DNA of 64,000 nucleotides from an uncultured Candidatus Saccharibacteria bacterium (GTDB taxonomy: Bacteria > Patescibacteriota > Minisyncoccia > Phycocordibacterales > UBA9973): the NCBI GenBank assembly GCA_964544225.1, contig CAZIZK010000002.1, positions 141,212 to 205,211 of the forward strand. The letters are read 5' to 3'. The notes under the pieces are model-generated. The model saw only the letters and a program-made list of their open reading frames with translations. It made no database searches and was not told the DNA's origin. Positions within the stretch are counted from its first letter, which is position 1, and each line of letters starts with the position of its first letter. The translations under genes and the position numbers were made by a program. Positions 2 to 52,525 of the stretch are shown piece after piece.

Positions 2-340
2 GGTAAGAAGTTCTTTGGCCCGGACTTTGCATACTATTTGTCCGCTACTATTGGTGAATTTACAAAGACAGTATCTATCATGGACAGCCATAAAGAGATC
101 ATCGATGATCTTCGTGAGACCAACGACTCATTATTGTCTAGTAAGACAAACGAGACAATGCGTATATTGACCATCATTACCTTTATCACCTCCCCTGTGA
201 TGGTTATATCGAGTATCTTTATGATGAACACTGACTTTGTCCTTCTAAATGGTGCTACAGAATTTATTATACTTGTAGGGATAATGCTCAGTATGAGTAT
301 TCTAATATTTATCTACTTCAAACTTAAAAAATGGCTCTAA
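2..340 (+). CDS. CorA-family Mg2+/Co2+ transporter, C-terminal fragment (gene continues upstream of window)
   Basis: Open frame from base 2 with no start. Two C-terminal TM helices, the signature region ...MRILTIITFITSPVMVISSIFMMNTDF..., and the terminal basic tail YFKLKKWL typical of CorA. The canonical GMN motif reads MMN here. Confidence 0.7.
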   Translation, partial: GKKFFGPDFAYYLSATIGEFTKTVSIMDSHKEIIDDLRETNDSLLSSKTNETMRILTIITFITSPVMVISSIFMMNTDFVLLNGATEFIILVGIMLSMSILIFIYFKLKKWL

Positions 341-5686: not shown

Positions 5687-6598
5687 ATGATAGATACAAT
5701 ATTGAGCGCAGGTAAAAATATAGACAAGTCTGATGTGGTGATAGTAAGTGCCGGTTATGAAAAGACAGCAAGTAGCCGTAAAGGTACAGCAAAGGGCCCA
5801 AAGGCTGTTATGAAGATGCTCGATAGCAAGCTCGAGCTCTTTGACCGTAATTTCAAGAAGGAGGCTAGCAAATTTATCGGTATTGCAGCCAAAGACCTAG
5901 GTGATATCAGTAAATTAACTCCCGAAGGTGCATTGAAGAAGATCACGGCTGAATGCGACAAGATAGTGTCCAAAGGTAAGTTCGTATTGTTGCTAGGTGG
6001 TGAGCACTCTGTATCATTAGGCCTATTCCAATCCCTTGCGAAAGTTCACAACCCAAAAGATGTCACAATATTACAAATCGATGCGCACTGTGACCTACGC
6101 GATACTGACGCCGACTACAACCCAAAGCCTACAAAGTATGCGCACTCTTGTGTACTACACCGTGCCACTGACTTACAATACCCACTAGTTCAGGTAGGTA
6201 TCCGCACATATTCAATACACGAATACAAGTATTTCAGTGATCCAAAGAATAATATTACAGTATTTGAATGGGGTAACCCAGACAGTGCCCATGATGTATG
6301 GCAAGCACCAAGTATCGACGAGATACTAGCTTCAATAAAGACAAAGTATGTATATCTAACTATCGATGTAGACGGCTTTGACCCTGCATATATGCCTGGT
6401 ACAGGTACACCTGTCCAAGGGGGCCTAGAGTGGTGGTATGGTGTAGAATTGATCAATAGATTGATAAATGAAAAGGTATTGATAGGTGCCGACATTGTGG
6501 AAGTCTCCCCTATGAAGGATTCCGTCCTTACTGAATACGGCGCAGCCCAGCTAGCGTATAATATAATCACTAATAAGTTCCGAGACAAGTTGAAATAA
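5687..6598 (+). CDS. speB: agmatinase/arginase-family ureohydrolase (likely agmatinase)
   Basis: Mn-binding signature blocks LLLGGEHSVSLG, ILQIDAHCDLRD, LTIDVDGFDPAYMPGTGTPVQGGL. Confidence 0.8.
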   Translation: MIDTILSAGKNIDKSDVVIVSAGYEKTASSRKGTAKGPKAVMKMLDSKLELFDRNFKKEASKFIGIAAKDLGDISKLTPEGALKKITAECDKIVSKGKFVLLLGGEHSVSLGLFQSLAKVHNPKDVTILQIDAHCDLRDTDADYNPKPTKYAHSCVLHRATDLQYPLVQVGIRTYSIHEYKYFSDPKNNITVFEWGNPDSAHDVWQAPSIDEILASIKTKYVYLTIDVDGFDPAYMPGTGTPVQGGLEWWYGVELINRLINEKVLIGADIVEVSPMKDSVLTEYGAAQLAYNIITNKFRDKLK

Positions 6599-6614
6599 GC
6601 ATTATTTGACAGAT

Positions 6615-6652
6615 GTGTATTTTTAGTTTATAAATAAATAAAAATACACATG
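6615..6652. terminator. hairpin (tgtgtattttta...taaaaatacaca) after the agmatinase gene
   Basis: 11-bp perfect inverted repeat with AT-rich loop. Marks the 5' border of an AT-rich cassette. Confidence 0.45.
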
Positions 6653-6653
6653 T

Positions 6654-7202
6654 ATGAAAAAACTATACTTAGCTAAAAGGATACAAAAGAACCCGGATCC
6701 CAGATTTATACTTTCAGTAAATACAAACATGAGCTTGGAAAATGTAATCGAGGCATATGTTGAAAAAATTTATGTCACAAAAAGATACATTTATAATGGC
6801 CCGTGGGTACTAAGAGCACCATTCTATGAAAATGTTTTTGCTGAAAATAATATGCCCCCAGATTTAAAACCTATTAATGTGTGGGAAATGGTCAAACAAA
6901 AAATAGATTCTAGCGATATTTTTATAGGTATAATAAGTGGAAAATCTTATGGAACTATTGCAGAGGTTGGATATGCCTGTAACTCCACTAAAATTGCAGT
7001 ATATGTACTACCTGAAATAAATTTAAGTTATGATGAATTACAAGATTTGTGGTTTGTATTTCAAATGGCATTTAATACAGAAAATTTATGGTTAGATGAG
7101 GATATAAAAAATATAGAAGAATTTAATCATCTAAATATTTTTTCTATTAATGACTATAAATCGTATGTAAGTAAAATAATACCAAATTTTATGAAAAAAT
7201 AA
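6654..7202 (+). CDS. nucleoside 2-deoxyribosyltransferase-like (NDT/Rcl/YtoQ-type Rossmann-like) protein
   Basis: Motif SDIFIGIISGKSYGTIAEVGYACNSTKIAVYVL matches the D...G..sGTa.ElGyA...kpv core of the NDT family, with a conserved Glu in AEVGYA. Very AT-rich gene. Confidence 0.5.
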   Translation: MKKLYLAKRIQKNPDPRFILSVNTNMSLENVIEAYVEKIYVTKRYIYNGPWVLRAPFYENVFAENNMPPDLKPINVWEMVKQKIDSSDIFIGIISGKSYGTIAEVGYACNSTKIAVYVLPEINLSYDELQDLWFVFQMAFNTENLWLDEDIKNIEEFNHLNIFSINDYKSYVSKIIPNFMKK

Positions 7203-7207
7203 AAATC

Positions 7208-7248
7208 AATAAAAACCTTTCTTTTTAAAAAATTGAAAGGTTTTTTTA
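7208..7248. terminator. hairpin aaaaacctttc-N13-gaaaggttttttt between NDT-like and NUDIX genes
   Basis: Perfect 8-bp stem flanked by A-run and T-run. Confidence 0.5.
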
Positions 7249-7271
7249 TTTATGATACAATTACCTTTATA

Positions 7272-7685
7272 ATGAATATACGTATAAACTCTTTAGTTTT
7301 AATTTATAATAAAGAAAAAGTTTTGCTCCAGAAAGGATATGATCATTTTAAAAATATTATTTTTTATAGACCATTAGGAGGAGGTATCGAATTCGGAGAA
7401 AAAGCTGTAGAAGCAGTAAAAAGAGAGATCATGGAAGAAATTGGAGCTACCTTAATAAAGGAAAAATTCCTTACTGTTTTTGAAAATATATTTGAATTTA
7501 ATGGAAATAAATTTCATGAAATAACATTTTTATTTACTGCAGAATTAGCAGAAGAAGAGATGAATAAAAAGAAATTCTTACAAATTTTAGACAAGAAAGG
7601 AGCACAAGCAGAGTGGGTTCTACTATCAGATATAAAAAATGGAGTAGTAAAAATTTTACCAGAAAATTGTATCAATTTTATGTAA
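7272..7685 (+). CDS. NUDIX hydrolase
   Basis: Nudix box GGGIEFGEKAVEAVKREIMEEIGA (GX5EX7REUXEEXGU). The start at 7272 (MNIRINS) is preferred because the 7233 ATG lies inside the upstream hairpin. Confidence 0.8.
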   Translation: MNIRINSLVLIYNKEKVLLQKGYDHFKNIIFYRPLGGGIEFGEKAVEAVKREIMEEIGATLIKEKFLTVFENIFEFNGNKFHEITFLFTAELAEEEMNKKKFLQILDKKGAQAEWVLLSDIKNGVVKILPENCINFM

Positions 7686-7716
7686 AAATACTTAAATTTC
7701 ATTCAGAGTTGAAATT

Positions 7717-7748
7717 AAAAAACACTAGGTCTTGCCTAGTGTTTTTTA
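7717..7748. terminator. bidirectional terminator hairpin cactagg-tcttg-cctagtg with A/T runs
   Basis: Perfect 7-bp stem, A5 upstream and T6 downstream. Lies between the convergent NUDIX and DHS-like genes. Confidence 0.65.
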
Positions 7749-7761
7749 ATTGGTTAGAATT

Positions 7762-8781
7762 TTAGCCTAAATACTGTTGTATTAGTTTGTTAGCCTCGTC
7801 AGGATTTGCCTTCATTTCCAATAGTGCTGTGAGCATTAGTGGGGCTACTATTGTAGCGTCAGATTCCACCACGAACATTGGAGTCTCCTCGGTCAATTTA
7901 TCCCAAGTGATCTTCTCGTTTGGAGTTGCACCGGAATATGAACCATATGATGTTGTAGAGTCAGATATCTGGCAGAAGTATGCCCAAGGCTTTGCCTGTT
8001 GTTCCATATCGTATTTCAGTGATGGAACTACACATATCGGGAAGTCTCCAGCGATACCTCCACCGATCTGGAAGAATCCGATACCCTTGCCCTCGGACAA
8101 TGTCTGATACTGGTCATATAATGCACCCATGTACTCTACACCGCTCTTTGCGATAGTTGCACTACAGTCCCCCATCTTTACGTGTGAAGCAAAGATATTT
8201 CCAAAAGTAGAGTCCTCGTATCCTGGCACCACTATTGGCAAGTTTGCCTGTGCAGCTGCAAGTAGCCAGCATTCATCGGCCTTACCTTCATGATCCTCCT
8301 TGTCTATCTTCTGTATTAATTCGTAGAAATATTCATGCCAGAAACGTCTGTCGCCTTTTGCATCTGCGTCCTTCCACATTGGGACAATAAACTTCTCCAC
8401 CTTGCGGAAAGCCTCATCCTCGGGGATACTAGTGTCTGTAACACGGCGCATACGATCCTCCAATATCTTTGTATCATCTTCTTTTGTAAAGTAACGATAA
8501 TCTGGAAAGTCCTTGTAACTATCATGGGCAACAAGGCGGAAAAGTGATTCCTCCAGGTTCGCACCTGTTACAGACATACCGTGGATAAGGCCTGCGCGGA
8601 TTGCCGGTGCAAGAGTGATACCCATCTGTGCAGAAGACATAGCCCCAGCGACAGCCCAGAACATACGGCCCCCACCTTCTACGTGGCGCCAATACGCTAT
8701 CAATGCATCACGAGTAGCACGAGAGTTAAAGTTCTTATAATTCTTTAAAACAAATTCTAATGTTGGAAGATTTGGATTCAT
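7762..8781 (-). CDS. deoxyhypusine synthase-like protein (bacterial DHS/homospermidine-synthase-like family)
   Basis: MFWAVAGAMSSAQMGITLAPAIRAGLIHGMSVTGANLEESLF aligns with the eukaryotic DHS core [42 protein letters not shown]. Size 339 aa. Confidence 0.7.
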   Translation of the reverse strand: MNPNLPTLEFVLKNYKNFNSRATRDALIAYWRHVEGGGRMFWAVAGAMSSAQMGITLAPAIRAGLIHGMSVTGANLEESLFRLVAHDSYKDFPDYRYFTKEDDTKILEDRMRRVTDTSIPEDEAFRKVEKFIVPMWKDADAKGDRRFWHEYFYELIQKIDKEDHEGKADECWLLAAAQANLPIVVPGYEDSTFGNIFASHVKMGDCSATIAKSGVEYMGALYDQYQTLSEGKGIGFFQIGGGIAGDFPICVVPSLKYDMEQQAKPWAYFCQISDSTTSYGSYSGATPNEKITWDKLTEETPMFVVESDATIVAPLMLTALLEMKANPDEANKLIQQYLG

Positions 8782-8832
8782 AATTTTTAAACTATTAATT
8801 TTATAAATATAAAAACATTATAACATTTTTTA

Positions 8833-8953
8833 AAAATCAAGATATTGCTGTAGATACAAGGCGACGATGAGCATTGCGACCAAAATGTAGACATCTACAT
8901 TGCGGAAGCAAGAGGAGTCGTCAACGCAGTAGGTATAGTAATATCTTGATTTT
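8833..8953 (-). ncRNA. structured intergenic element between speA and the DHS-like gene (candidate regulatory RNA or attenuator)
   Basis: 14-bp perfect outer inverted repeat (aaaatcaagatatt / aatatcttgatttt) enclosing about 90 nt that contain the palindrome atgtagacatctacat and repeated cattgcg motifs. The 176-nt intergenic gap is unusually long for this genome. Confidence 0.35.
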
Positions 8954-8957
8954 TATT

Positions 8958-10340
8958 TTACCAGCCAAAATTCTTGCCCACTTCGTCGGCTGTCTCACGT
9001 TTACGAGCAATAACAATGTGGCCGTTCTCCACTATCAACTTCAATGGTGAAGACAACATGCAGTGGTGTGCTGCTAGTGGGTCTTGGTATGCACCTGTGT
9101 CGAACACGGCTATGTACATCGGGTCGCCACCTTCACTGGAATCATAATCTGGTAATGTTACAGCGCCATCTACGCCTGTATATATGTCGTCACTATCACA
9201 AGATGAACCAGCGAGCCATACATCATTTAACTCGCCATCACGTTTGTTGTTTACTGGTGCCAATGCCCACTTCTGGCCAATAGCCCAAGTGTCTAGCAAG
9301 TCGTTCATAAAGCTTCCGTCTATTACGTACCACTTTTTTGCAGGAGCCTTTTTATTATTTATCGGCTTTGTATCGATAACTTTAAATACAGTTATCTGGG
9401 CAGGGGCTACAATATAGCGACCCCATTCGCAAATCAGGTTTGGGTGCGCAACTCCACGCTTGTCGGCCTCGTCCCTCATTAATTTCAATATCTTATCCAT
9501 TAATTTATCCACTGGATAGCTCTTGTTCCTTGTATACGGTATTGGCATACCACCACCAATGTCGAGTGTGTCGAGTGATGGATTAATCTCCTTTAGTTTA
9601 AAGAATACATCCAGAGCGTATTTAATAGGGCCTAGTACGTCAGACAATTTCTCTATCTGTGAACCTATATGATAATGTAATATTTTTAGATTTTTAAATT
9701 TACCCATTTCCAATATCTCCTTTGCGCCGAACCCAAAACGGTCGATGGGCTTGTTCCAGTACGAATCAGCCTTTACTGGCATGTCTAGGCGTATACCCAC
9801 ATCGTATTTAGAATGCTGTAGGAACTTCAATTCATTTGGCCCTTCGATAAGTGGAAATATCTTCACACCTTTGTGTTGTAGGTCGTCGATGAGGTTTATG
9901 TATTTGTCAGTTTTAGGGCCCGAGCAAAGTATGCGAATATCTGGGTTGAACTTCTCTTGTTCCAACATCTTCTTTATTAGGTACAGATCATTGAAAGATG
10001 AAGTTTCGAGGTGGGCACCCTCACCCACGATACTCATAACAATTTCCTTATTCTGGTTCACCTTCATCGGGTAATGGTAGAAGAACTTGCCTTTGTAGCC
10101 CACCTTCTTTGAAAGTGATGCTGTTAGGTCTAGGAAGTCCTCCAGCCTCTCCTCCACCACGAATGGCAAAAGAATCTCCAGTGATGTACCGAACTTCTCT
10201 GCAAGATATCGAACGTTATAAATATTGTGCCCTTCTTTGATTATCAAGTCACCCTCCTTGCTGTAATCAAAATATTGAGTATTGAACTCGGTAGCCCCAA
10301 GCTTCCAAAGTTTCTTAGAAGCTACTGATTTTTTGGTCAT
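8958..10340 (-). CDS. speA: biosynthetic arginine decarboxylase, SpeA-type (PLP fold-III decarboxylase), short form
   Basis: YPMKVNQ (SpeA-type PIKVNQ PLP-lysine motif rather than the ODC/LysA YAVKxN), YHIGSQ, LDIGGGMPIPY, EWGRYIVAPA, SSCDSDD substrate-loop Cys. 460 aa. Confidence 0.75.
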   Translation of the reverse strand: MTKKSVASKKLWKLGATEFNTQYFDYSKEGDLIIKEGHNIYNVRYLAEKFGTSLEILLPFVVEERLEDFLDLTASLSKKVGYKGKFFYHYPMKVNQNKEIVMSIVGEGAHLETSSFNDLYLIKKMLEQEKFNPDIRILCSGPKTDKYINLIDDLQHKGVKIFPLIEGPNELKFLQHSKYDVGIRLDMPVKADSYWNKPIDRFGFGAKEILEMGKFKNLKILHYHIGSQIEKLSDVLGPIKYALDVFFKLKEINPSLDTLDIGGGMPIPYTRNKSYPVDKLMDKILKLMRDEADKRGVAHPNLICEWGRYIVAPAQITVFKVIDTKPINNKKAPAKKWYVIDGSFMNDLLDTWAIGQKWALAPVNNKRDGELNDVWLAGSSCDSDDIYTGVDGAVTLPDYDSSEGGDPMYIAVFDTGAYQDPLAAHHCMLSSPLKLIVENGHIVIARKRETADEVGKNFGW

Positions 10341-10418
10341 TTCATATAAGCAAGCCTACTGCTCGCACTAAACGAATAATAAAGTAATAATAGCAGAAAT
10401 GAAGGATATGTAAATAGT

Positions 10419-11252
10419 TTAGATATTCTTACCAACAAGGAATCCCTCTGAACCCTTTTTGTTGCAATTATGAGCAAAAACAATCAATCCATCCTTTGAA
10501 GCTTTCACAACCTTGCATCCATCAAGAGCTACAATTTGACCTTTTTTTATTTTTTCGAAATCTTTAAATTTCTTTTTTAAAACAAATGAATCTGTCTTTG
10601 TGTGGTAAATAGAGGTCATTTTAATATTCTCTCTTGCAACTTTTATACTTTTTTTAGATTCTATATGACCTTGAGCTTGCAAGAAAGACTGTATTGCATT
10701 AAATGCATTTTTTATAGACTTTTTATCATTATGCTGACCACACTCGACACAAATACCTACCTTACCTATATCATTCATATAACCCTCGGTTCCACCGGGT
10801 TCAATAGTATTAAAATTGTATAACACTCTTTTGAAATCTTTTGGAAATGAATTGATTATTTTATTTGCATTTTTCTCACAAATTATAAAGGGTGCATTTT
10901 TGTGGGTTGTGGAATGTATATCCAACAATGCATCGGCTTTGTTTAACAATTTCTTTATGAACAATGACCTCTTGTACTCATATGATGATTTTATGTTCTT
11001 AGTATATTTATTATCTCTACTGAATAATCTATTTAAGTTAACTTCAGTAAATCTCTTTTTTTGTTCTATTGCTTTTGGATTACCAAAAATAAATACAACC
11101 TTACCTTTTTGTATTTCTAAGTTTGGTAAAATTAATTTAAAAGCTTCAACTCCACAGCCTTCGTCACCATGAGTGCCTGCCATAATAACACTTACTTTAC
11201 CTGGTTTTATTCCTTTTTTCTCTATTACTTCTTCCATGCATATAAAATACAT
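10419..11252 (-). CDS. succinylglutamate desuccinylase/aspartoacylase (AstE/AspA) family Zn-dependent deacylase
   Basis: N-terminal MAGTHGDEGCG matches the family GTHGNE zinc-binding motif. Size 277 aa. Confidence 0.6.
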   Translation of the reverse strand: MYFICMEEVIEKKGIKPGKVSVIMAGTHGDEGCGVEAFKLILPNLEIQKGKVVFIFGNPKAIEQKKRFTEVNLNRLFSRDNKYTKNIKSSYEYKRSLFIKKLLNKADALLDIHSTTHKNAPFIICEKNANKIINSFPKDFKRVLYNFNTIEPGGTEGYMNDIGKVGICVECGQHNDKKSIKNAFNAIQSFLQAQGHIESKKSIKVARENIKMTSIYHTKTDSFVLKKKFKDFEKIKKGQIVALDGCKVVKASKDGLIVFAHNCNKKGSEGFLVGKNI

Positions 11253-11332
11253 TAAATAAATTTTATATGCAAATAAAAAAGGCCCGTGCTGTATATACAG
11301 TCGGTGCCCTTTTTCAAAATATTGTTTGTTTA

Positions 11333-12565
11333 CTAATCAGCTTTGATTAGCTCACGAGCTTCATCCAACATATTGAATGCATGCTCGTGTGAAAGAAAAG
11401 AGATAGCGGTCAGGTCCACAGAACCATGCCTTATGATTCCTGGATTTGTAACGAGTACAAAACCACTCTTTTTTGGCACGAGGCGTTTACCCAACAACAC
11501 CTGAAGTTCTGCAAAAGATGATACCTTTGCGTGGCTGGTGTGCTGATGCCGAACAAAGTGAGGCTTGCCCTCCATTTCTTTATTCTTCAGATACCGGTTT
11601 ACAGCATCATAGATGAACAGGATCGCACCTTTGCGTGGATTCAGGTCACTCCAATAGAAGTGTCCATCATTGCAAACAAGGATATCACAACACATAAAGC
11701 CAAGGCCTCCGCGTTTTGCAATACACTCGGTCAGCATTTTGTACTCTACAAAAATACTGTCCAACAAATCGTTTGGGATTTTTGTGGGAAAAATTGTTCC
11801 CACATAGCTAACATTCTCAGCCAGCTGCTCAAAACAATTCAGGAACTTTACGTTTCCATTAAAATCAATTTCCCAATGCATGGAGATTTCCATTGCCACG
11901 GGGATAAGCTTTTCAATAATGTACTCATCTTTGAGTGCATCATATTCAGCTTTTGATTTTATCGGGACTATTGTTCCGAGGCCTGCACCACCGGTACCAT
12001 ACACATGCTTTGCGATGTACCCATTTTGGCTTTCGCCAAGCATTAATACAACATCTTCCCACTCTACTCCACCGTGTGTTTTATCAACATACGGTAATGC
12101 AGAAATTCCGGCTTGCTTGCAAAGCTCCTTGAAATTTGATTTCCTTTGGAACTCATTTGCAAACTCGAAATTGATATAGGAAGGCATCTTTAACTCTTCA
12201 GCCAAGCGCTGTTCCTTTACCGACGGAGTAAAAAACTCCAGTCGTACATCATACCCATTTACCGCTTTCAGCAGACTTGATTTAACCTCATTTTTGTTCA
12301 AGATTAATTCAGAAAGGATCTGATTTTGCTCAAAAGGCCCAGCGGTTAGTAAAGTTGGGATACTGAAACCAAGATGCTTCCAGTATTTAACATAATCAGA
12401 ATCAATAGGGTTCGTTGTTATTACAACATCACCTGATTTACCCTGACTAAGGGCTGCTCTTTGATCGAAATCTTGTTCAGATTCCAACCCTAAGAAATGT
12501 GGATTACTTTGGCTATCAATGATAACTCTTCGTACCCTTGCTGCTTCAACCGATTCTCTTTTCAT
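11333..12565 (-). CDS. ATP-grasp family ligase (amide/peptide ligase-like)
   Basis: C-terminal ATP-grasp hallmark CDILVCNDGHFYWSDLNPRKGA (D.l...dG..y.lE/DlNprpG) and a Gly-rich loop GTGGAGLG. 410 aa, N-terminal pre-ATP-grasp-like region. Confidence 0.6.
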   Translation of the reverse strand: MKRESVEAARVRRVIIDSQSNPHFLGLESEQDFDQRAALSQGKSGDVVITTNPIDSDYVKYWKHLGFSIPTLLTAGPFEQNQILSELILNKNEVKSSLLKAVNGYDVRLEFFTPSVKEQRLAEELKMPSYINFEFANEFQRKSNFKELCKQAGISALPYVDKTHGGVEWEDVVLMLGESQNGYIAKHVYGTGGAGLGTIVPIKSKAEYDALKDEYIIEKLIPVAMEISMHWEIDFNGNVKFLNCFEQLAENVSYVGTIFPTKIPNDLLDSIFVEYKMLTECIAKRGGLGFMCCDILVCNDGHFYWSDLNPRKGAILFIYDAVNRYLKNKEMEGKPHFVRHQHTSHAKVSSFAELQVLLGKRLVPKKSGFVLVTNPGIIRHGSVDLTAISFLSHEHAFNMLDEARELIKAD

Positions 12566-13375: not shown

Positions 13376-14476
13376 TTAGATTCCCTCTTCTTTTAGCTTC
13401 TCGATTAGTTCGCGGGACTTTTTATTTAGTTTGTTTGGCATCTTGATCTGGATACGTAGGATAATGTCACCACGATTTCGTCCACCTTGTGGCACACCCT
13501 TGCCACGCACTCGTAGTAGTTCGCCATGACCGATACCTTCGGGGATTGTTACTTCGAGCTTACCATCCAGTGTTGTAAGCTCGTATTTCATGCCTAGGAG
13601 CGCTTCTGAGAGCTTTATAGGTAGATCCATAGTTAGGTTGGCACCATCACGTTTGAAAGTACTGTGGGGCTTTACATTGATCTTGATATACAAGTCACCA
13701 CTTTGGCCACCCTTTACCGCCTCGCCCATTGCTGTCATGCGGATCATTTCGCCATTGTTTATACCTGCTGGGATCTTGATATCTATCTCAGACTGTTTGC
13801 GGGCTACACCTGCACCACGACATTCGGTACACTTTTCTTCAGGAATTTTTCCAGCACCTTCACATTTGCTACACTCTACAACTGTCTGGAATGTGCCAAG
13901 CATGGAGCGCTTCATCTCGCGGACTTTACCCTGACCATTACATGCCGTACAAGTGTTTGTCTTTGTACCTTTCTTTGCACCAGATCCACTACAGATGTCG
14001 CACTGTGATTGCTTTGTGATTAGTACCTTCCTCTCTACGCCGAATACTGAATCCTCGAAGCTAATATCTATCTCAGTAGAAATGTCGCGTCCACGGCGTG
14101 ACTGTGCACGGCCACGGCCCATACCTCCGCCGAAAAAGTCACCAAATATATCACCAAGGTCACCCATGTCGAACTCTACTCCGCTACCATTTTGGAATCC
14201 TGAAAAGTCGAATCCGCCAAATCCTCCGCCTTGGCCACCACCGTATCCACCACCGAAGCCTTGTGGGCCGTCGGCTGAACCAAACTGATCATAGCTTGAA
14301 CGCTTCTTGTCATCAGAAAGAACCTGGTAGGCTTCGTTGACCTCCTTGAATTTACTATCGTCACCTTTATTTTTATCTGGGTGGTATTTATGAGCAAGTT
14401 TATGAAAAGCCTTCTTTATCTCATCCTTACTTGCCCCCTTATTTACCCCCAATGTTTCGTAGTAATCTTTCGCCAT
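13376..14476 (-). CDS. dnaJ: chaperone DnaJ
   Basis: J-domain with HPD (YHPDKN), G/F-rich linker, four CxxCxGxG zinc-finger repeats, C-terminal domain. Confidence 0.95.
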
Positions 14477-14498
14477 AGTATTTTTATACTATCACAAA

Positions 14499-16391
14499 TT
14501 ATTTCTGCTCACCACTCTCATTAGTTTCTGCATCCTTGATCTCTTCTGATTGAGGTTCAGCTGTAGTGCCGGCCTCTGGAGTGGCACCTGCCTTGCTCAT
14601 AGCTTCACCAATTTTTGACATCTCGGCTGACAATTCCTCGGCGGATTTCTTGATAGCGTCTATGTCTGTGCCATCCTTTGCAGTGCGAAGTGCTGTGATC
14701 TTTTCCTCTACACTTGCCTTCAAAGTTGCATCTACCTTATCGCCGTATTCCTTTATAGACTTCTCGGCAGAGAATATCATCATCTCGGCAGTATTCTTCT
14801 CATCCACTAGGGCCTTCTTCTTTGCGTCTTCTTCGGCATGTAGCTCGGCATCCTGTTGCATCTTCTTTATATCCTCGTCTGTTAGGCCTGAACCTGCTTC
14901 GATACGGATACTCTGTTCCTTGCCACTTGCTTTATCCTTTGCCTTTACATTCAATATTCCGTTCGCATCTACGTCGAAAGTAACCTCTACCTGTGGCATA
15001 CCACGTGGTGCTGGAGGAATACCGTCCAGAATAAATCGGCCTAGAGATTTGTTGTCAGTTGCCATTGGGCGCTCACCCTGAGTGATGTGTATTTCTACAC
15101 TTGTCTGATTGTCGGCAGCAGTAGAGAATGTTTGTGATTTGGAACTTGGGATAGTTGTATTACGCTCTATCAACTTTGTAGCGACACCTCCAAGAGTCTC
15201 GATACCGAGTGATAGTGGTATAACATCGAGCAACAATACATCCTTTACATCACCTTGCAATACACCTGCCTGCACGGCTGCACCTAGGGCTACAACTTCA
15301 TCTGGGTTGATAGAACGGTTTGGTTCCTTGCCACCGAACAATGCTTTTACCGCTTCGATTATGGCTGGCATACGAGTCTGTCCACCAACGAGGATCACTT
15401 CATTGATCTCATTCATCTTGAAAGGTGAAGCTTCCATCGCGCGCTTTGTAATAGCGATCGACTGTTCGATATATTCAGAAGCTAGAGATTCTAATTGTGC
15501 ACGAGACATCTTCTCCACCAAGTGCTCGGGGCCGTTGGCACCACTTGTGATAAATGGAATATTTATTTCAGTTTCAGGAGTTGTAGAAAGTTCGATCTTT
15601 GCCTTTTCTGCAGCTTCATCCAGACGCTGGATAGCAAGAGGGTCCTTACTGATATCAATACCGGTCTTCTTCTTGAACTCGTCTGCAAGCCAGCTTATTA
15701 TCTTCTGATCGATATCGCGGCCTCCCATATGAGAGTCTCCATCTGTAGACTTTACTTCAATAACGTCGCCTGACACTTCTAGAACTGACACATCGAAAGT
15801 TCCACCCCCAAAGTCGTAGACAACTATCTTTTCATCTTTTTTTGTATTGAAGCCGTATGCAAGGGCTGCTGCTGTAGGCTCATTAATAATCCTCTTTACA
15901 TCCAACCCTGCGATAGCACCTGCATCCTTTGTGGCTTTACGTTGTGAGTCGTTGAAGTATGCTGGAACTGTAATGATAGCCTCGGTTACCTTCTCGCCCA
16001 ATTTTGCCTCTACATCGGCCTTTATCTTTGCTAGTATCATTGCAGATATTTCCTCGGGGCGTGACCACTTGTCACCAATGTTTACTTCTGCTCCACCGTC
16101 TGTACCTGCTTGGATCTTGAAAGGAGCGGTCTTTTGAGTCTTCTGGATTTCTGGATCCTCAAATCGGTGACCCATGAAGCGCTTTATACCGTAGATAGTG
16201 TTGGCAGGGTTTGTAACAGCCTGACGCTTTGCGAGCAAGCCTACAAGCCTGTCACCATTCTTACCCACAGCAACGATAGATGGAGTTGTACGTCCACCTT
16301 CGATATTCTCGATTATCTTTGGCTGACCACCTTCAATGATAGCCACCGCACTGTTTGTTGTACCCAAATCTATACCAATTATTTTACTCAT
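14499..16391 (-). CDS. dnaK: chaperone DnaK (Hsp70)
   Basis: [18 protein letters not shown], full-length Hsp70 with acidic C-terminal tail. Confidence 0.97.
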
Positions 16392-16458
16392 ATGTTTTTA
16401 TATATTAATTAATAATAATTTCTAATTTGTAAATCAATTATATACTCACTTTTACTTT

Positions 16459-16496
16459 TTGACAAGTATTTAGCGACCGCTGAATACTTGTATATC
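16459..16496. promoter_or_regulatory. TTGACA -35-like hexamer overlapping a 28-bp near-perfect palindrome (candidate operator) in the dnaK / regulator divergent intergenic region
   Basis: ttgaca at 16459-16464. caagtatt-TAGCGACCGCTG-aatacttg at 16463-16490 (8-bp perfect arms, spacer itself partly palindromic gcgaccgc). Confidence 0.45.
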
Positions 16497-16522
16497 GATA
16501 ATATACATGATAATATATTTTT

Positions 16523-17035
16523 ATGTCAAGTAAAAAGGACTATTCGAAGAAAATCATAAATATATTGGCGAAAAAGCCAGCCGTAGCTATAAATGACATA
16601 GTGGGTAATGACGCCGGCAAGTCCAAATATGCCATTATTCGCTCCATAAAAGGCCTACAGGAGGCTGGATTGGTAGAACAGGTATCTTCAGGTCAGAACG
16701 ATTATGCCCGCCTTACAAAGCAAGGCAAGAAAAAGGCCCTCAGTATCCGCCTAGATAGCACAGATAGCCTCAGTACCAACTGGGATGGCAAATGGCGCAT
16801 AATACTCCTAGACCTGCCCGAGAGTCGCAAGAACGAACGCGAGAGCCTTCGCTACCTACTAAAAAAAGCAGGGTTCACCTGCATGAAGAATTCTGCTTGG
16901 ATATCCCCTTACCCATTCGAACACATGTTCTACAATATTAAAAAGGATCTGAGTCTCACCACTGAAATGATGATCATCGTCACCGACAACCTCGACCCCG
17001 AAACAGAGAACGCATTTCTAAATTTACATAAATAA
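16523..17035 (+). CDS. putative transcriptional regulator: N-terminal winged-HTH plus C-terminal Cas2-like/PaaX-C-like domain
   Basis: N-terminal about 60 aa HTH-like (KKPAVAINDIVGNDAGKSKYAIIRSIKGLQEAGLV). C-terminal WRIILLDLPESRKNERESLRYLLKKAGFTCMKNSAWIS follows the Cas2 beta-alpha-beta pattern (hhhhhD..., RR.K..K.L...G, RvQ.SVf). Divergent from dnaK. Confidence 0.5.
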   Translation: MSSKKDYSKKIINILAKKPAVAINDIVGNDAGKSKYAIIRSIKGLQEAGLVEQVSSGQNDYARLTKQGKKKALSIRLDSTDSLSTNWDGKWRIILLDLPESRKNERESLRYLLKKAGFTCMKNSAWISPYPFEHMFYNIKKDLSLTTEMMIIVTDNLDPETENAFLNLHK

Positions 17036-17058
17036 AAACACCCATTGGGTGTTTTTAT
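17033..17058. terminator. bidirectional terminator acaccca-t-tgggtgt with flanking A/T runs
   Basis: Perfect 7-bp stem between convergent genes. Confidence 0.6.
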
Positions 17059-18044
17059 TTATGTTTATGATTACGCCGGAAAGCACGATCTAAGCTTTTT
17101 ATATCTTCAAATTTTTTCTCTAGATATGGTTCGATGATCTTGTGTGCATCATACTCTATAGAACCGGGTTTGTTATATTCTTTTAATTGTGATTTTATAA
17201 AACTGTGCTCTTTAGATGTTACAACATCACCAGCAATTCTTAAACCATCTTGAATCATTTGCAAAGTAGAGCCAACAGGATGTTCATCAAATTGTTTAGC
17301 ATGAGCCCATTCAGCAACTAAATCTCTTAATTGGAAATGTCCACCCAAGCTTTTATAATCTTGTGCATTTATAAAAACAGTATGTGTAAAAGAATTATAA
17401 TGAGCTACTTTATTATCATTGGAAATCAAAAAATCTCGGTTTTTACCGAAAGTCCAATCTATTTTAGGAGACCCACATTCTTTTTCCACCTCCCACAACT
17501 TTTTATAAATAGTGTCATTGTATTCATACTTTTTAGGATAGTATCTACTTAATGATCTTTCAAAATATTTCAAAGTTTCCTGTTCATTTTCCAATTCTTG
17601 TTTTTTATCATTTATCTTATCTAATTTTGATAAAAATTTAACTAATTCCTGTTTATTAAAATTTATAAAATTTTCTGGAAGTGTTAATTTACTATCACCT
17701 TGCGAAGACCAACCAATAATATATTCTTTGAAAAAATGCATTTGTTCTTCTTCACTAAGAGAATCCAAACCTCCTAAATAATTCAATATATGGGTAGTTT
17801 GCTTGTCTGAGTGTGTATATACCTCTTTACCATCAACATTTGAAGCTTCTATTGTATTATTATGGGTAGCTTGATAATCAGCTATCAAACCAATAGTTAT
17901 GATAGTTGCCACTTGTCGTGTCCTCTTTAAGAATTTTAAAGCTTTTTCTTTAACCTGCTCTAAAGTAGACTTTTTTTCAGGAGTCTTTGGTTCTTCAGTG
18001 GTATTTACCGGTTCTGGATTTGTTTGTTTATTTATTCCCTCCAT
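17055..18044 (-). CDS. hypothetical protein (329 aa), Lys/Glu-rich, inserted between grpE and the dnaK regulator
   Basis: ORF only. N-terminal region with a probable TM (VATIITIGLIA). No motif recognised. Confidence 0.45.
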   Translation of the reverse strand: MEGINKQTNPEPVNTTEEPKTPEKKSTLEQVKEKALKFLKRTRQVATIITIGLIADYQATHNNTIEASNVDGKEVYTHSDKQTTHILNYLGGLDSLSEEEQMHFFKEYIIGWSSQGDSKLTLPENFINFNKQELVKFLSKLDKINDKKQELENEQETLKYFERSLSRYYPKKYEYNDTIYKKLWEVEKECGSPKIDWTFGKNRDFLISNDNKVAHYNSFTHTVFINAQDYKSLGGHFQLRDLVAEWAHAKQFDEHPVGSTLQMIQDGLRIAGDVVTSKEHSFIKSQLKEYNKPGSIEYDAHKIIEPYLEKKFEDIKSLDRAFRRNHKHK

Positions 18045-18176: not shown

Positions 18177-18734
18177 TTATTTTAAACTATAGACTTTTAC
18201 TCTTGCGGGTCTTATGATACGGTCGCCTATTTTGTACCCTGATTGCACAATAGTTGCAATAGTATGGTCTTGCGATGCGTCAGTAGTTTCAATAGTCTCG
18301 ATACTTTCATGTAGATTTGGGTCAAAGGCTACACCTGTCTGGTTGATAGCAGTTACATTGTTGTCCTCCAATACACGGGCGAACTGTGCACGTATGTATT
18401 CAATACCATTGCGCCAGTTTGCATCTACCTTCTCCCAAGCCTCTTTGTTACCCATAGCCATGTCAAAACTGTCGAGGGCTGGCAACAAGTCCTCTACAAA
18501 GTTGCTAGTTACTAGAGCCTTGATATCCTTTACCCTATTGTCTGTATCTTTCTGCAAGTTCACATAGTCGGCCTTTGCCCTCTGCCAGCCTGTTAGATAC
18601 TCCTCCTTTTCCTTCCTACAAACTTTTAAATCTTCGCGCAATTTCTTTGCGACGTCTTTTGTAGGCAGGGCCTCACCATCCTCGGTACTCTCGACAAATT
18701 CTAAGTCTTCGAATTTTTCTTCATTTTCTTCCAT
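18177..18734 (-). CDS. grpE: nucleotide exchange factor GrpE
   Basis: Coiled-coil N-terminus, GWQRAKADYVNLQKD, C-terminal beta domain with FDPNLHESI. Confidence 0.9.
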   Translation of the reverse strand: MEENEEKFEDLEFVESTEDGEALPTKDVAKKLREDLKVCRKEKEEYLTGWQRAKADYVNLQKDTDNRVKDIKALVTSNFVEDLLPALDSFDMAMGNKEAWEKVDANWRNGIEYIRAQFARVLEDNNVTAINQTGVAFDPNLHESIETIETTDASQDHTIATIVQSGYKIGDRIIRPARVKVYSLK

Positions 18735-33145: not shown

Positions 33146-34177
33146 TTATATTGCAGTGTACAAGCCCTGCTTGTTCTTCTTGAAATATTTTGAGTTCTGC
33201 AAGTTCACAAGGATTGTGTTCTTCTTCAAGTAACGTTCCTTCATGACTGCTTCTACTATGTCGTCTTTTGACATTGGGCCATTTGCCTTCAATAGATCCT
33301 TTATAACATCGCGGACAACGCCAGTCTTGTAACCCCATTCCTTTAGCGCGTATATACCACGGCCTACTAGAACGAAACGCTGGTCCTTTATAAGTTCGTT
33401 GTGGCAAGTTGCTGTATGAGTCTTCTTACCGAAAGTATCACAGATAGAGTTAGCTACTTCACGGAAGTGCATAGGGCTACCATGCTTGCGCATCATAAGG
33501 AATGCATAATCCTTGATACCACGAGTCTTGATATTTGAAGAAGTAGACTTACCCCATTCACCGAGTGGGTTCTTACTCATCTTCTTGCTCATTGATAACC
33601 ATCGGCGAGCCATCTCTTCGTCACGGTATTTATCAGAAAGGTCCTTCAATTCATCTAGGAACTTCTTTACCAATTCACTTTCTGGAATCAATTCATCGTC
33701 ACTTAGGTTTGTATACAAGTTCTTCAGAGCGTTGTGAATATTTTCTGACACAGAGTCATCGATACTCCAGCGACTCTTGAAATGTTCGTCTTCCTTACTC
33801 TTTGTAAAGTCATCACCTAGTGTTAGGTATAGGTGTATATGGTTCTGAGTTGTTAAGTCCTTTGAGATATGTGACAGTAGTTCATCTTCACCAACGATAG
33901 AGCCTAGCTTCTGCATAACCTCCTTTAGTTCTGTAAATACAGATTGTTCTGTTTTATATGCATCAGATTTGCGGATCAAAGATAGTGCCGAGTTCTCGAT
34001 CTGGCGAACACGTTCGCGAGTAATGCCATACTTGCCACCAATAGCCTCGAGAGTCTTGCGCTCTGGTTCATCACCAAGACCAAATCGACTTATGATAACT
34101 TCATAAGAACGTTCTGGTAAGTGAGACAGGATCCTCTTTGTGACTTGCTTTGGTTTAAATGTTACTGTTGTTGGCAT
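33146..34177 (-). CDS. DNA-binding protein with N-terminal sigma-70 region-4-like HTH and C-terminal HARE-HTH-like domain
   Basis: N-terminus ERSYEVIISRFGLGDEPERKTLEAIGGKYGITRERVRQIENSAL is a classic sigma70 r4 pattern. C-terminus PMHFREVANSI...RFVLVGRGIYALKEWGY resembles the HARE-HTH of the RNAP delta subunit. Confidence 0.5.
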   Translation of the reverse strand: MPTTVTFKPKQVTKRILSHLPERSYEVIISRFGLGDEPERKTLEAIGGKYGITRERVRQIENSALSLIRKSDAYKTEQSVFTELKEVMQKLGSIVGEDELLSHISKDLTTQNHIHLYLTLGDDFTKSKEDEHFKSRWSIDDSVSENIHNALKNLYTNLSDDELIPESELVKKFLDELKDLSDKYRDEEMARRWLSMSKKMSKNPLGEWGKSTSSNIKTRGIKDYAFLMMRKHGSPMHFREVANSICDTFGKKTHTATCHNELIKDQRFVLVGRGIYALKEWGYKTGVVRDVIKDLLKANGPMSKDDIVEAVMKERYLKKNTILVNLQNSKYFKKNKQGLYTAI

Positions 34178-46573: not shown

Positions 46574-46960
46574 ATGTCTTTGAAAGAGTCCAACATCGTT
46601 ATAAACAAAACAAAAGGCAAGCTTCCAAGCTTGCCTTTTGTTTCTATTGCAAGATCCATACTTGGCAAGGATTATGATATCTCTGTAGTATTTGTATCGG
46701 GTGCAAAATCAAGAATCATAAACCGTACATATCGTAGCAAGGATTATGCCACCAATGTATTGTCATTCCCTCTTACAAAAAATTCTGGCGAGATCGTAAT
46801 GTGTCCCGATGTTATGAAGAAGGAATACTCCTCTTTCGACATGAATTACAAGAAATTTGTGACTTTTTTATTTATCCACGGTTGTCTACATTTGAAAGGA
46901 ATGGAACATAGTAGTACAATGGAGAAAGAGGAGAAAAAATTTCTAAAGAAATTTTCTTAA
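46574..46960 (+). CDS. ybeY: endoribonuclease YbeY
   Basis: Zinc-binding HxxxHxxGxxH motif: IHGCLHLKGMEH. 128 aa. Confidence 0.8.
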   Translation: MSLKESNIVINKTKGKLPSLPFVSIARSILGKDYDISVVFVSGAKSRIINRTYRSKDYATNVLSFPLTKNSGEIVMCPDVMKKEYSSFDMNYKKFVTFLFIHGCLHLKGMEHSSTMEKEEKKFLKKFS

Positions 46961-52493: not shown

Positions 52494-52525
52494 AAACCCC
52501 CACACTCATGCATGAGTGTGGGGGG
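52494..52525 (-). terminator. perfect 13-bp palindrome ccccacactcatg/catgagtgtgggg
   Basis: Downstream (minus strand) of the nucleotidyltransferase gene. Confidence 0.55.

Follow-up and report, generated by a model that had tools for sequence, protein, structure and literature searches.

The window (the whole stretch of DNA that was analysed, 64 kb in length) contains a chaperone operon, dnaK-dnaJ, on the minus strand and an open reading frame of 170 codons on the plus strand. The two are read away from each other across a 131-bp gap at 16392-16522, just as the first-pass annotation had it. The features of the locus are the following, with the source of each assignment in brackets.

13376-16391, minus strand: dnaK-dnaJ, the candidate target operon (ORFs and synteny with the regulator gene)
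13376-14476, minus strand: dnaJ (ORF list)
14499-16391, minus strand: dnaK (ORF list)
16392-16522: intergenic region of 131 bp between dnaK and the regulator gene (divergent genes on either side)
16437-16442, minus strand: predicted dnaK-directed -10 box TATAAT, 17-bp spacer (promoter scan)
16460-16465, minus strand: predicted dnaK-directed -35 box TTGTCA, overlapping the left arm of the operator (promoter scan, 11/12)
16459-16488, plus strand: alternative promoter TTGACA-N18-AATACT (promoter scan, 10/12)
16462-16491, no strand: candidate 30-bp operator ACAAGTATTTAGCG-AC-CGCTGAATACTTGT, 14-2-14, arms agreeing at 13/14 positions (inverted repeat)
16488-16516, plus strand: predicted mirror-image promoter of the regulator gene (sequence and 173-locus profile)
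16523-17035, plus strand: regulator gene, 170 aa, wHTH and PaaX_M, no PaaX_C (ORF list)
17026-17064: perfect 19-bp hairpin with A and T runs on either side, a bidirectional terminator (inverted-repeat scan)
18177-18734, minus strand: grpE, context (ORF list)

The hairpin at 17026-17064 separates the regulator gene from a convergent ORF of 329 aa, and the regulator gene is therefore monocistronic. In the lineage of the window, the regulator gene stands between grpE and dnaK, and grpE has no operator of its own. The known elements of chaperone-gene control were searched for in the window and in orthologous loci. Neither hrcA nor the HrcA domain (PF01628) was found among the window ORFs. CIRCE (TTAGCACTC-N9-GAGTGCTAA) was absent from the window at up to 4 mismatches, including the regions upstream of dnaK and grpE, and likewise from dnaK and grpE at 80 genome loci (850 kb, up to 4 mismatches); the HAIR inverted repeat was absent from the window. 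No cas genes or toxin-antitoxin partner were present nearby among the window ORFs, and the repeat scan of the window yielded no CRISPR array. The earlier observations that hrcA is missing from the locus, CIRCE from the regions upstream of dnaK and grpE, and cas genes and CRISPR arrays from the window were thus confirmed.

The domain composition and fold of the 170-aa protein were determined from profile searches and a structural model. The HTH-like region proposed for the N-terminus proved to be a canonical wHTH, of which residues 5-70 resemble the Csa3/CasR/CARF-wHTH regulators (PADLOC, E 2e-7), with weaker matches to TIGR01884 (E 0.1) and DUF6293_C (E 0.0015). The Cas2-like character of the C-terminal half was borne out by PF20803 (PaaX_M, 'PaaX protein central Cas2-like domain'), which in Pfam matches residues 85-162 with an E-value of 7.1e-20 (71.3 bits; cutoff 24), and by Foldseek, which relates the domain to Cas2 and VapD with a probability of 0.8-0.9. 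The Cas2 family proper (PF09827) was not matched by the 170-aa protein at E ≤ 10 in Pfam; some paralogs do match PF09827, and some are annotated as Cas2. An AlphaFold2 model based on 23 close homologs (pLDDT 59) was replaced by one based on an alignment of 108 sequences (pLDDT 85). In the model, the C-terminal domain has the ferredoxin-like topology beta-alpha-beta-beta-alpha-beta with an acidic residue after beta-1, and its sequence follows the motif 'hhhhD...R..L...GF..hQ.SVW'. The model stops past this domain; the chain ends at residue 170 and has no Pfam match to PaaX_C. The top structural match, over the full length, was E. coli PaaX (8A39). Searches of PDB sequences with the single protein or with a narrow family profile did not reach PaaX, which was found by Pfam and by the fold comparison alone.

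The acidic residue at the end of beta-1, D97, is invariant in 23 orthologs (alignment A1) and kept in at least 90% of the 108 sequences of alignment A4. Its position is the one at which Cas2 carries its metal-binding Asp; E. coli PaaX has a Ser at the aligned site. Within the clade, the mean pairwise identity is 87% for the Cas2-like domain versus 65% for the wHTH. Proteins of this architecture are abundant: the short PaaX-like proteins of Patescibacteria (wHTH and PaaX_M, about 170-200 aa) form 2864 clusters at 50% identity (E ≤ 1e-3), the majority of 180-200 aa, with the common motif WDGxWR...D.PE...R..LR..L...GF...S.W..P (alignments A2 and A4). The 170-aa protein shares their two domains and their length, and it is best explained as a transcription factor of this short PaaX-like type, composed of a wHTH and a Cas2-like dimerisation/sensor domain. 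That a regulator should have recruited a Cas2-like fold is, in itself, nothing new, as that fold defines the middle domain of the PaaX family (PF20803).

Given the PaaX_M domain and the JGI label of many homologs, 'DNA-binding transcriptional regulator PaaX', the protein might be taken for an ordinary PaaX, i.e. a phenylacetyl-CoA-responsive repressor of aromatic catabolism. PaaX itself is represented by the E. coli (PDB 8A39) and Jannaschia (3L09) proteins, by TIGR02277 and by the Pfam families PF07848, PF20803 and PF08223. Against TIGR02277, however, the score is 41.3 bits with a cutoff of 264.55, over profile positions 39-139 of 279; BLASTP with E. coli PaaX aligns the WDGKW motif only, and paa genes are absent from the window and from every orthologous locus examined. 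The failed family cutoff and the absent PaaX_C domain rule out a PaaX ortholog, and an ordinary PaaX function is scarcely credible.

The palindrome in the intergenic region had been described as caagtatt-N12-aatacttg at 16463-16490. The position was exact; the element is in fact longer, with 30 bp from 16462 to 16491, and includes a CG-rich core in addition to the outer 8-mers. The consensus of the operator family is RCAAGTATTTCGYG-RY-CRCGAAATACTTGT, with the core TTTCGYG-RY-CRCGAAA and the outer arms ACAA and TTGT. A 30-bp weight matrix was derived from the orthologous loci and scored on 80 loci and a shuffled control. Exactly one site of at least 12 bits was present in 76 of the 80 orthologous genome loci, whereas the 399 kb of shuffled sequence had no such site. 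The window operator scores 43 bits, and no second position in the 64 kb reaches 8 bits. The latter includes a match at 60239-60266 with one mismatch to the outer 8-mers, which lies inside a 98-aa ORF, has no CG core and was rejected as a chance match. Since the window contains 49 inverted repeats of at least 13 nt, chiefly terminator hairpins, palindromes of this size are common, and the significance of the operator rests on its position and conservation. The half-site TTTCGYG is similar to TGATTCGYG, the PaaX box of E. coli (read in the paaA and paaZ promoters of the E. coli K-12 sequence), a likeness that fits a PaaX-type wHTH as the probable binder.

A single strand of the palindrome folds well (-9 kcal/mol, z = -5.3), and the element could in principle work through a hairpin of its own strands, in the manner of RNA thermometers, terminators or cruciforms. 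The genes on its two sides start in divergent directions, however, and neither predicted transcript includes it. The arm pairs show no compensatory covariation beyond what two independently evolving arms would produce, and at the centre the pair is always AC or GT and never complementary. In Rfam, the intergenic region had no match; sub-threshold matches were obtained for the terminator hairpin alone. The chance that the palindrome functions as a hairpin is very slight.

The promoters around the operator were predicted from the sequence and from an operator-anchored profile of 173 unique loci. On the dnaK side, the -35 position is conserved in the profile, as is an ATTATA box at -24 to -19 relative to the operator, which is also present in two distant orthologs (L211 and L212). 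On the regulator side, the right arm of the operator contains a -35-like TTGTAT (16488-16493), which is followed by an extended -10, TGaTAATAT (16508-16516); the corresponding T-G-n-T-A-n-n-A-T at relative positions 47-55, conserved over the 173 loci, exactly mirrors the dnaK -10 about the operator centre. In 96 of the 173 loci, 60-64 nt separate the start of the operator from the ATG of the regulator gene. In the window, the regulator transcript presumably starts at or next to the ATG at 16523, which would make it a leaderless mRNA. The TTGACA hexamer reported to overlap the palindrome was found on the plus strand at 16459-16464; most simply, it is the opposite-strand view of the predicted dnaK-directed TTGTCA. 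If the alternative promoter TTGACA-N18-AATACT were used, the operator would cover it from -35 through -10.

One arm of the candidate operator overlaps the predicted core promoter of the chaperone operon. The operator centre is situated about 46 bp upstream of both predicted transcription starts, and the operator touches the upstream four bases of each -35. Activators that contact RNA polymerase often occupy such a geometry, and the 170-aa protein could bind the palindrome as an activator or dual regulator, which under stress would bring RNA polymerase to its own gene as well as to dnaK. The dnaK promoter, however, is already near consensus (TTGTCA-17-TATAAT, 11/12) and should need no activator. 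The other known dedicated regulators of chaperone operons with palindromic operators, HrcA, HspR and CtsR, are repressors. PaaX, the relative that has been characterised, is likewise a repressor; it is autoregulated and works by steric hindrance of RNA polymerase (PMC9493321). We consider activation unlikely and favour repression.

The association of regulator, operator and chaperone genes was then followed through related genomes. The regulator gene is divergent from dnaK in nearly all of the 80 genomes, with regulator identities of 55-75%; the DnaK proteins of the clade are 72-95% identical to that of the window (tblastn), a range to which the 87% of the Cas2-like domain comes close. A metagenome scan that was blind to genes and used the half-operator as its pattern gave 120 matches, of which about 114 adjoin the regulator gene and/or dnaK and none adjoins another chaperone gene. 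Five high-GC or hairpin-bearing contigs were set aside: partial pattern matches in high-GC contigs (L107, L187, L190 and L194) and a match in an AT-rich hairpin contig (L189) were judged to be due to chance or artefact. In L116, dnaK and the regulator gene each seemed to have an operator; this locus was not used either, as the contig is a mirror-image duplication and an assembly artefact. With the synteny of nearly all of the 80 genome loci and of the 120 metagenome loci taken together, regulator gene, operator and Hsp70 operon are linked over about 190 independent loci. Three loci (L020, L050 and L072) contain the regulator gene with no recognisable operator.

The distance from the operator to the ATG of dnaK varies from 18 bp to more than 1400 bp, in contrast to the distance to the regulator ATG, fixed in 96 of the 173 loci, and the protein might merely regulate itself or control distant genes, with dnaK as an incidental divergent neighbour. 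The variation is explained by small same-strand genes that have been inserted downstream of the promoter, and the dnaK-directed -10 stays at a fixed distance from the operator. Genes for a J-domain protein and a trypsin-like peptidase are among those that have come to lie between operator and dnaK in other genomes, which speaks in favour of the repressor model. In five genomes (L048, L015, L006, L068 and L074), an insertion of 0.7-3.7 kb separates the regulator gene from the dnaK-side genes; the sole operator remains in front of the dnaK-side genes, and the region upstream of the regulator gene scores as background. At the loci of four distant orthologs (42-47% identity), the grpE-dnaK-dnaJ operon is intact and diverges from the regulator gene; an operator is still recognisable there at 15-21 bits and is followed by grpE as the first gene. 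In two of these loci (L211 and L212) the operator is nearer to grpE (57-66 bp) than to the regulator gene (146-205 bp). These arrangements make it highly improbable that dnaK is no target, and they argue for an operator that follows the chaperone promoter.

Paralogs of 26-38% identity are found in unrelated contexts and not near dnaK. Such proteins, and the conserved features of the Cas2-like domain, raise the question whether the palindrome is bound by another factor or has another role in the DNA, with the 170-aa protein being a nuclease or toxin of the Cas2/VapD type or a regulator of unlinked genes, and with gene order as its only link to dnaK. In favour are the conservation of D97 at the position of the metal-binding Asp of Cas2, the paralogs that match PF09827 and the stronger conservation of the Cas2-like domain relative to the DNA-binding domain; moreover, binding is not provable from synteny alone. 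Against it stand the canonical wHTH, the likeness of the half-site to the PaaX box, and the distance between operator and regulator start codon, fixed in 96 of the 173 loci, which is typical of autoregulation. The operator core, in addition, diverges in step with the regulator in the distant orthologs, and the toxin-antitoxin partner, cas gene and array are all absent nearby. The general pairing of operator and regulator is partly confounded by the common synteny of both with dnaK. On balance, a role unrelated to dnaK is distinctly unlikely, less so than mere autoregulation and more so than activation.

Comparison with PaaX shows which parts of the system are shared. In both proteins an N-terminal wHTH is followed by a Cas2-like middle domain, and the PaaX half-site holds TTCGYG (E. 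coli Pa promoter, TGATTCGTG-N13-CACGAA; Pz, CGCGAATCA), the PaaX boxes being TGATTC/GAATCA (PMC9493321). The window protein, however, has 170 rather than 316 residues, with the whole of PaaX_C missing, and an Asp instead of the Ser of E. coli PaaX where Cas2 has its metal site. Between the inner half-sites there are 2 bp here and 13 bp in PaaX, so that the spacing is shorter by about one helical turn. The candidate target is the Hsp70 operon instead of aromatic catabolism, and the hosts are Patescibacteria instead of Proteobacteria.

The arrangement also resembles HrcA/CIRCE in having a dedicated regulator gene by grpE-dnaK-dnaJ (in the distant orthologs just upstream of grpE) and a palindromic operator within a housekeeping-type promoter. 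HrcA has an unrelated fold, however, and hrcA is the first gene of its operon whereas the regulator gene here is divergent; CIRCE differs in sequence and has a 9-N9-9 geometry as opposed to 14-2-14. HspR, which acts on HAIR, represses the dnaK operon of Actinobacteria, Helicobacter and Campylobacter. The narrow dnaK-centred regulon and the autoregulation proposed here are like those of HspR, and by this analogy a feedback through DnaK is plausible; unlike the window protein, HspR is a MerR-family member whose gene forms part of the dnaK operon, and HAIR is a different inverted repeat. The C-terminal domain shares fold and motif with the ferredoxin-fold nucleases Cas2 and VapD, but is fused to a wHTH and has no cas1, CRISPR array or antitoxin nearby. 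The wHTH is similar in sequence to those of Csa3/CasR/CARF-wHTH regulators, but here there is no CARF domain and no CRISPR context.

The fold, the operator with its promoter overlap and the coupled evolution of the regulator with the operator and the Hsp70 operon are direct results of the computations, and the proposal of a non-HrcA regulator with a wHTH and a Cas2-like domain, dedicated to the dnaK operon through a promoter palindrome, gains support from the fold, the roughly 190 linked loci, the operator that follows the chaperone promoter and the lack of CIRCE at the 80 loci. We infer that the 170-aa protein is the operator binder, that binding means repression and that heat or unfolded protein provides the signal. 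Probably, though by no means certainly, the protein acts in Paceibacteria/Nomurabacteria as a dimeric repressor of both the Hsp70 operon and its own gene. It would occupy the 30-bp palindrome as a dimer or a dimer of dimers; the outer arms of the palindrome hold the predicted -35 boxes of the back-to-back promoters of dnaK-dnaJ and the regulator gene. Because both -35 boxes are in these arms, occupancy would block RNA polymerase at both promoters, and the Hsp70 operon and the regulator itself would be repressed. Proteotoxic stress would lead to release, and both would be induced.

The regulator could itself be thermolabile and receive the signal in this way, or titration of DnaK/DnaJ could convey it to the very strongly conserved Cas2-like domain. 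As PaaX_C, which is credited with inducer binding in PaaX (PMC9493321), is absent, the sensing mechanism cannot be read from homology. In so far as it was visible here, the regulon is made up of the Hsp70 operon and the regulator gene. The idea that the palindrome recurs at other heat-shock promoters did not hold for hsp20 (59302-59811), which is in the window and has no site; if the protein is a heat-shock regulator, its regulon must be very narrow. Probes for GroEL/GroES gave no match in 1.74 Mb of collected loci.

A more far-reaching version of the repressor model is speculative and, in our estimate, rather unlikely, if less so than activation. Here the protein would represent a further, unrelated family of chaperone repressors beside HrcA, HspR, CtsR and RheA, specific to CPR/Patescibacteria, with the Cas2-like domain itself as the stress sensor, either by binding DnaK/DnaJ (chaperone-titration feedback) or through a retained metal/nuclease site of the Cas2 type (D97). 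If so, a proteostasis sensor would have been made from a fold that is elsewhere familiar from CRISPR adaptation and from toxins, and the family would connect Cas2/VapD with PaaX in evolution.

Most CPR/Patescibacteria have not been cultured, and their very small genomes encode few regulators; to our knowledge, almost nothing is known about their transcriptional regulation. In the literature on PaaX/Cas2-like proteins and on the regulation of dnaK in Patescibacteria/CPR we found no description of such a regulator, and the sequence data indicate that the locus most likely encodes an undescribed kind of chaperone-gene repressor beside dnaK in a large group of ultra-small (CPR) bacteria. As a candidate, it offers a complete regulatory unit for a class-level clade: a single protein, a single 30-bp operator, a pair of mirror-image promoters and a single target operon. 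Confirmation would place a new protein family among the few dedicated regulators of bacterial chaperone genes, show control of Hsp70 without CIRCE at dnaK in these organisms and provide the first function for one branch of the very large family of short wHTH-Cas2-like proteins. The operator motif can be used as an annotation marker for these genomes. Automated pipelines name members of the family 'hypothetical', 'PaaX' or even 'Cas2'.

The chaperone genes dnaK and dnaJ are separated by an AT-rich spacer of 131 bp from a divergently oriented gene for a putative regulator of 170 residues. The spacer holds a palindromic element, the candidate operator, and the locus is organized as follows:

13376-14476, minus strand, dnaJ
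14499-16391, minus strand, dnaK
16462-16491, operator palindrome
16523-17035, plus strand, regulator gene (170 aa)
17026-17064, perfect 19-bp hairpin at the 3' side of the regulator gene, which looks like a bidirectional terminator
17055-18044, minus strand, 329-aa ORF between the regulator gene and grpE
18177-18734, minus strand, grpE, beyond the 329-aa ORF

The ribosomal cluster rpsI-rplM-rplQ-rpoA follows after grpE. The 329-aa ORF matched no Pfam family and gave no tblastn match in any of 80 genome loci; in several of these loci grpE comes directly after the regulator gene without it, and the ORF appears to be a lineage-specific insertion. On the other side, a polyamine-type gene cluster (5687-12565) adjoins the chaperone operon on its dnaJ side; its members are an arginase/agmatinase family protein, a deoxyhypusine-synthase-like protein, an Orn/Arg/DAP decarboxylase, an AstE/AspA-like deacylase and an ATP-grasp enzyme.

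The gene neighbourhood was compared in 80 loci, each drawn from a separate genome in the GTDB collection. Nearly all loci of sufficient length have the regulator gene pointing away from dnaK and towards a convergent grpE, the usual order being rpsI, grpE, regulator (opposite strand) and dnaK. Four distant orthologs (42-47% identity) are transcribed away from an intact grpE-dnaK-dnaJ operon, and four paralogs (26-38% identity; L207-L210) lie in unrelated neighbourhoods. Since the association with dnaK is found in the orthologs, distant ones included, and not in the paralogs, the Hsp70-operon linkage belongs specifically to this orthologous group and persists through rearrangement of the operon. 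Among the paralogs examined (alignment A2, and P0322, P0352, P0304 and P0350 in L207-L210), several have a hydrophobic, membrane-helix-like N-terminus.

The palindrome reported in the first-pass annotation was found exactly at the position described there and extends to 30 bp (16462-16491: ACAAGTATTTAGCG-AC-CGCTGAATACTTGT), its arms agreeing at 13 of 14 positions. The window contains 49 inverted repeats of at least 13 nt, chiefly terminators, so the existence of such a palindrome is by itself insignificant and its position and conservation are what matter. Two other palindromes, both perfect and neither an obvious terminator, are located within the 5' part of ybeY (46608-46643, arms of 17 nt) and in an intergenic gap (52497-52524, GC-rich, 28 bp, CCCCCACACTCATGCATGAGTGTGGGGG). 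A consensus search followed by a weight matrix yielded the 30-bp family element RCAAGTATTTCGYG-RY-CRCGAAATACTTGT. Of the 80 loci, 76 have exactly one site of at least 12 bits, in each case in the interval from dnaK to the regulator gene; shuffled sequence (399 kb) gave zero weight-matrix matches. The site at 16462-16491 scores 43 bits and is the only one of at least 8 bits in the 64-kb window. An independent scan of metagenome contigs with the half-element TTTMGYGRYCRCNRAAWACTTGT, which used no protein information, retrieved at least 120 matching stretches. Among the 120 matches listed, about 114 have the regulator gene and/or dnaK directly beside the site and none has groEL there; the remainder comprise one mirrored contig, one contig with an AT-rich hairpin and chance matches in high-GC sequence. 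Locus L116 was rejected as a case of a duplicated operator, the whole contig being a mirror-image duplication that looks like an assembly artefact of public metagenome data; the long AT-rich hairpin of L189 (5350-5500) also looks like an assembly artefact and can mimic duplicated operators.

Mirrored arm positions are Watson-Crick complementary just as often as independent columns would be; each arm evolves as a separate copy of a shared consensus. At the centre the dinucleotide reads either AC or GT in every case and is never self-complementary in either orientation, and an Rfam scan at the operator gave no match. Such an operator pattern would be expected of a two-fold site bound by a protein and not of a hairpin.

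Promoter elements were sought in 173 unique loci anchored on the operator (position 1 is 16462 in the window):

positions -24 to -19 (16437-16442), minus strand, predicted -10 box of dnaK, ATTATA (TATAAT on the dnaK strand), conserved in the 173 loci
positions -1 to 4 (16460-16465), minus strand (complement), predicted -35 box of dnaK, TTGTCA, in the left operator arm
positions 27-32, plus strand, mirror-image -35-like TTGTAT in the right operator arm, conserved
positions 47-55 (16508-16516), plus strand, mirror-image -10, TG-n-TAnnAT (TGaTAATAT in the window), conserved

The predicted dnaK promoter, with TTGTCA and TATAAT exactly 17 bp apart, is near consensus (promoter score 11/12). In 96 of the 173 loci the regulator ATG follows the operator start by 60-64 nt, which places it 6-9 nt beyond the -10 box; in the window the extended -10 ends 6 nt ahead of the ATG. 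No Shine-Dalgarno sequence precedes this ATG (16508-16525), and the regulator mRNA may be leaderless because of the short distance from the -10 box. The TTGACA hexamer of the first-pass annotation, on the plus strand, would most simply be the base pairs of the dnaK -35 box viewed from the other strand; an alternative plus-strand promoter, TTGACA-N18-AATACT, is possible. With the mirror-image promoter as with this alternative, a protein bound at the operator would cover core elements of both divergent predicted promoters.

The distance between operator and dnaK varies among loci, because many genomes carry small inserted genes of the same strand downstream of the promoter and ahead of dnaK. Examples are:

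L066 4876-5748, J-domain protein with DUF4352
L009 5033-5908, trypsin-like peptidase
L003 5378-5902 (also in L028 and L015), AAA_18 or shikimate-kinase-like protein
L056 5416-5829, low-molecular-weight phosphatase

Such genes would be carried along under the dnaK promoter and share its regulation. In five genomes (L048, L015, L006, L068 and L074) the regulator gene is 0.7-3.7 kb away from the operator; in all five the single operator stays before the dnaK-side transcription unit, and the 400 bp upstream of the displaced regulator genes score as background (-6 to -16 bits). In the distant orthologous loci L211 and L212 the operator is 57-66 bp from grpE and 146-205 bp from the regulator gene, with a TATAAT box again 17 bp off. 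That the operator stays with the chaperone side in the displaced and distant cases argues that the chaperone promoter is the conserved target; autoregulation would follow from the usual divergent arrangement.

The winged helix-turn-helix (wHTH) and Cas2-like domains proposed for the protein in the first-pass annotation were both recovered by (i) Pfam, (ii) an AlphaFold2 model and (iii) Foldseek. Residues 85-162 match PF20803, 'PaaX protein central Cas2-like domain' (E 7e-20), and the N-terminal half gave weak winged-helix matches; the NCBIfam PaaX equivalog model scored 41 bits, below its cutoff of 264.55. In the AlphaFold2 model, built from 108 diverse homologs (mean pLDDT 85), residues 3-64 form a three-helix bundle and a beta-hairpin wing, followed by a linker helix, and residues 91-169 a beta-alpha-beta-beta-alpha-beta-alpha domain. 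An earlier, poorer model had already placed the C-terminal domain beside many Cas2 and VapD structures. The top Foldseek match spanning both domains was E. coli W PaaX (8A39; E 2.4e-5, 172 columns), with further matches to Jannaschia PaaX (3L09) and Rv0674 (3KFW); BLASTP against E. coli PaaX aligned only the WDGKW motif at the start of the Cas2-like domain. The combination of the two domains is already known from PaaX, where it makes up the N-terminal two thirds; the C-terminal domain of PaaX is missing from the window protein. The suggestion that a Cas2-like fold had been recruited into a regulator is borne out as to the fold; its presence inside a transcription factor is not new, being recorded as PF20803.

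The wHTH (residues 5-70, 16523-16735) resembles that of Csa3, CasR and CARF-wHTH proteins (PADLOC, E 2e-7), with further matches to TIGR01884 (E 0.1) and DUF6293_C (E 0.0015), and some paralogs are annotated as 'CRISPR-associated endonuclease Cas2' and match PF09827. Judged by these similarities, both domains have CRISPR-associated relatives; a search of the window found neither a cas gene nor a CRISPR array, as had been noted before. The Cas2-like domain is by far the better conserved, with a mean pairwise identity of 87% (residues 87-155) versus 65% for the wHTH (residues 1-70) in 23 orthologs, and of 74% versus 43% in 66 orthologs. Asp97, at the position of the metal-binding Asp of Cas2, is present in 23/23 orthologs and at least 90% conserved in the wider family, whereas E. 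coli PaaX has Ser. The constraint on this domain exceeds the need of a plain dimerisation module, and its exceptional conservation suggests that it contacts some equally conserved partner.

A word-indexed search retrieved 1804 homologs. The best 120 of the 1804 have 57-100% identity and carry the public labels 'hypothetical' or 'PaaX'; where named, their sources are Patescibacteria, Paceibacterota, Nomurabacteria or Minisyncoccia. Searched exhaustively, 1.84 billion cluster representatives gave 2864 clusters (at 50% identity) with E <= 1e-3, 405 with E <= 1e-10 and 10 with E <= 1e-30, the members being mostly 180-200 aa. The small number at the strictest threshold compared with the many at 1e-3 indicates that the window protein is part of a tight orthologous group within the short wHTH-PaaX_M proteins, a family that is very large in Patescibacteria.

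We infer that the regulator itself binds the operator because gene and operator co-occur almost universally, the geometry is autoregulatory, the operator core is altered where the regulator has diverged most (L203, core TTTTATG-CA-CAAAAAA, with an altered recognition helix), and the half-site resembles that of PaaX. In E. coli K-12 the paaA promoter Pa (L202 1876-1903, in the paaZ-paaA intergenic region) has an inner inverted repeat TGATTCGTG-N13-CACGAA and the paaZ promoter Pz contains CGCGAATCA, in agreement with the described PaaX boxes TGATTC/GAATCA (PMC9493321). The core TTCGYG is common to both systems, but in the Patescibacteria operator (TTTCGYG-N2-CRCGAAA) the inner boxes stand nearer to each other than in Pa by roughly one helical turn, the E. 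coli repeat being spaced 11 bp wider. One may speculate that this reflects a tighter dimer without the C-terminal domain.

The regulator would bind as a dimer, or a dimer of dimers, joined through the Cas2-like domain, as the 'dimerization motif' described for PaaX in a review (PMC9493321) suggests. On the 30-bp operator, such a dimer would occlude the -35 regions of both promoters and thereby repress dnaK-dnaJ (grpE-dnaK-dnaJ in other lineages) together with its own gene, and stress would release it. Repression is favoured over activation because the dnaK promoter is already near consensus and because the known regulators dedicated to chaperone genes, HrcA, HspR and CtsR, all act by repression. 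PaaX, which represses through steric hindrance, points the same way; its C-terminal domain, absent here, is credited with inducer binding (PMC9493321). Purely by analogy with HspR-DnaK and HrcA-GroEL, the releasing signal might be DnaK/DnaJ titration or intrinsic thermolability. Overall, we hold with fairly high confidence that the protein binds DNA and regulates the Hsp70 operon through this operator; our confidence that it does so as an autoregulated repressor is moderate.

The earlier proposal of a non-HrcA system agrees with the lack of hrcA in the window and of CIRCE, the HrcA operator, at dnaK or grpE, over about 850 kb searched in the window and 80 genomes. The palindrome was also expected at other heat-shock promoters; it was not found at hsp20, the case covered here. 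The surroundings of hsp20 in the window, which starts 12 bp after a PrsW-family gene, contain neither an operator copy nor CIRCE (58582-59811):

58582-59289, plus strand, PrsW-family intramembrane protease gene
59302-59811, plus strand, hsp20

The gene for GroEL was in none of the retrieved loci. Within the loci covered, the regulon consists of the Hsp70 operon and the regulator, and is thus more like that of HspR than that of a global heat-shock regulator. The literature searched held no description of the short two-domain subfamily, of strict Hsp70-operon coupling across a class-level Patescibacteria clade, or of a 30-bp operator with mirror-image promoters. The protein would represent a dedicated, operon-linked regulator of chaperone genes from a family not previously tied to that role. 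Elsewhere in the window, a 343-aa protein (33146-34177, minus strand) combines an N-terminal sigma-70 region 4 domain with a HARE-HTH domain, an unusual architecture for a sigma-related protein.
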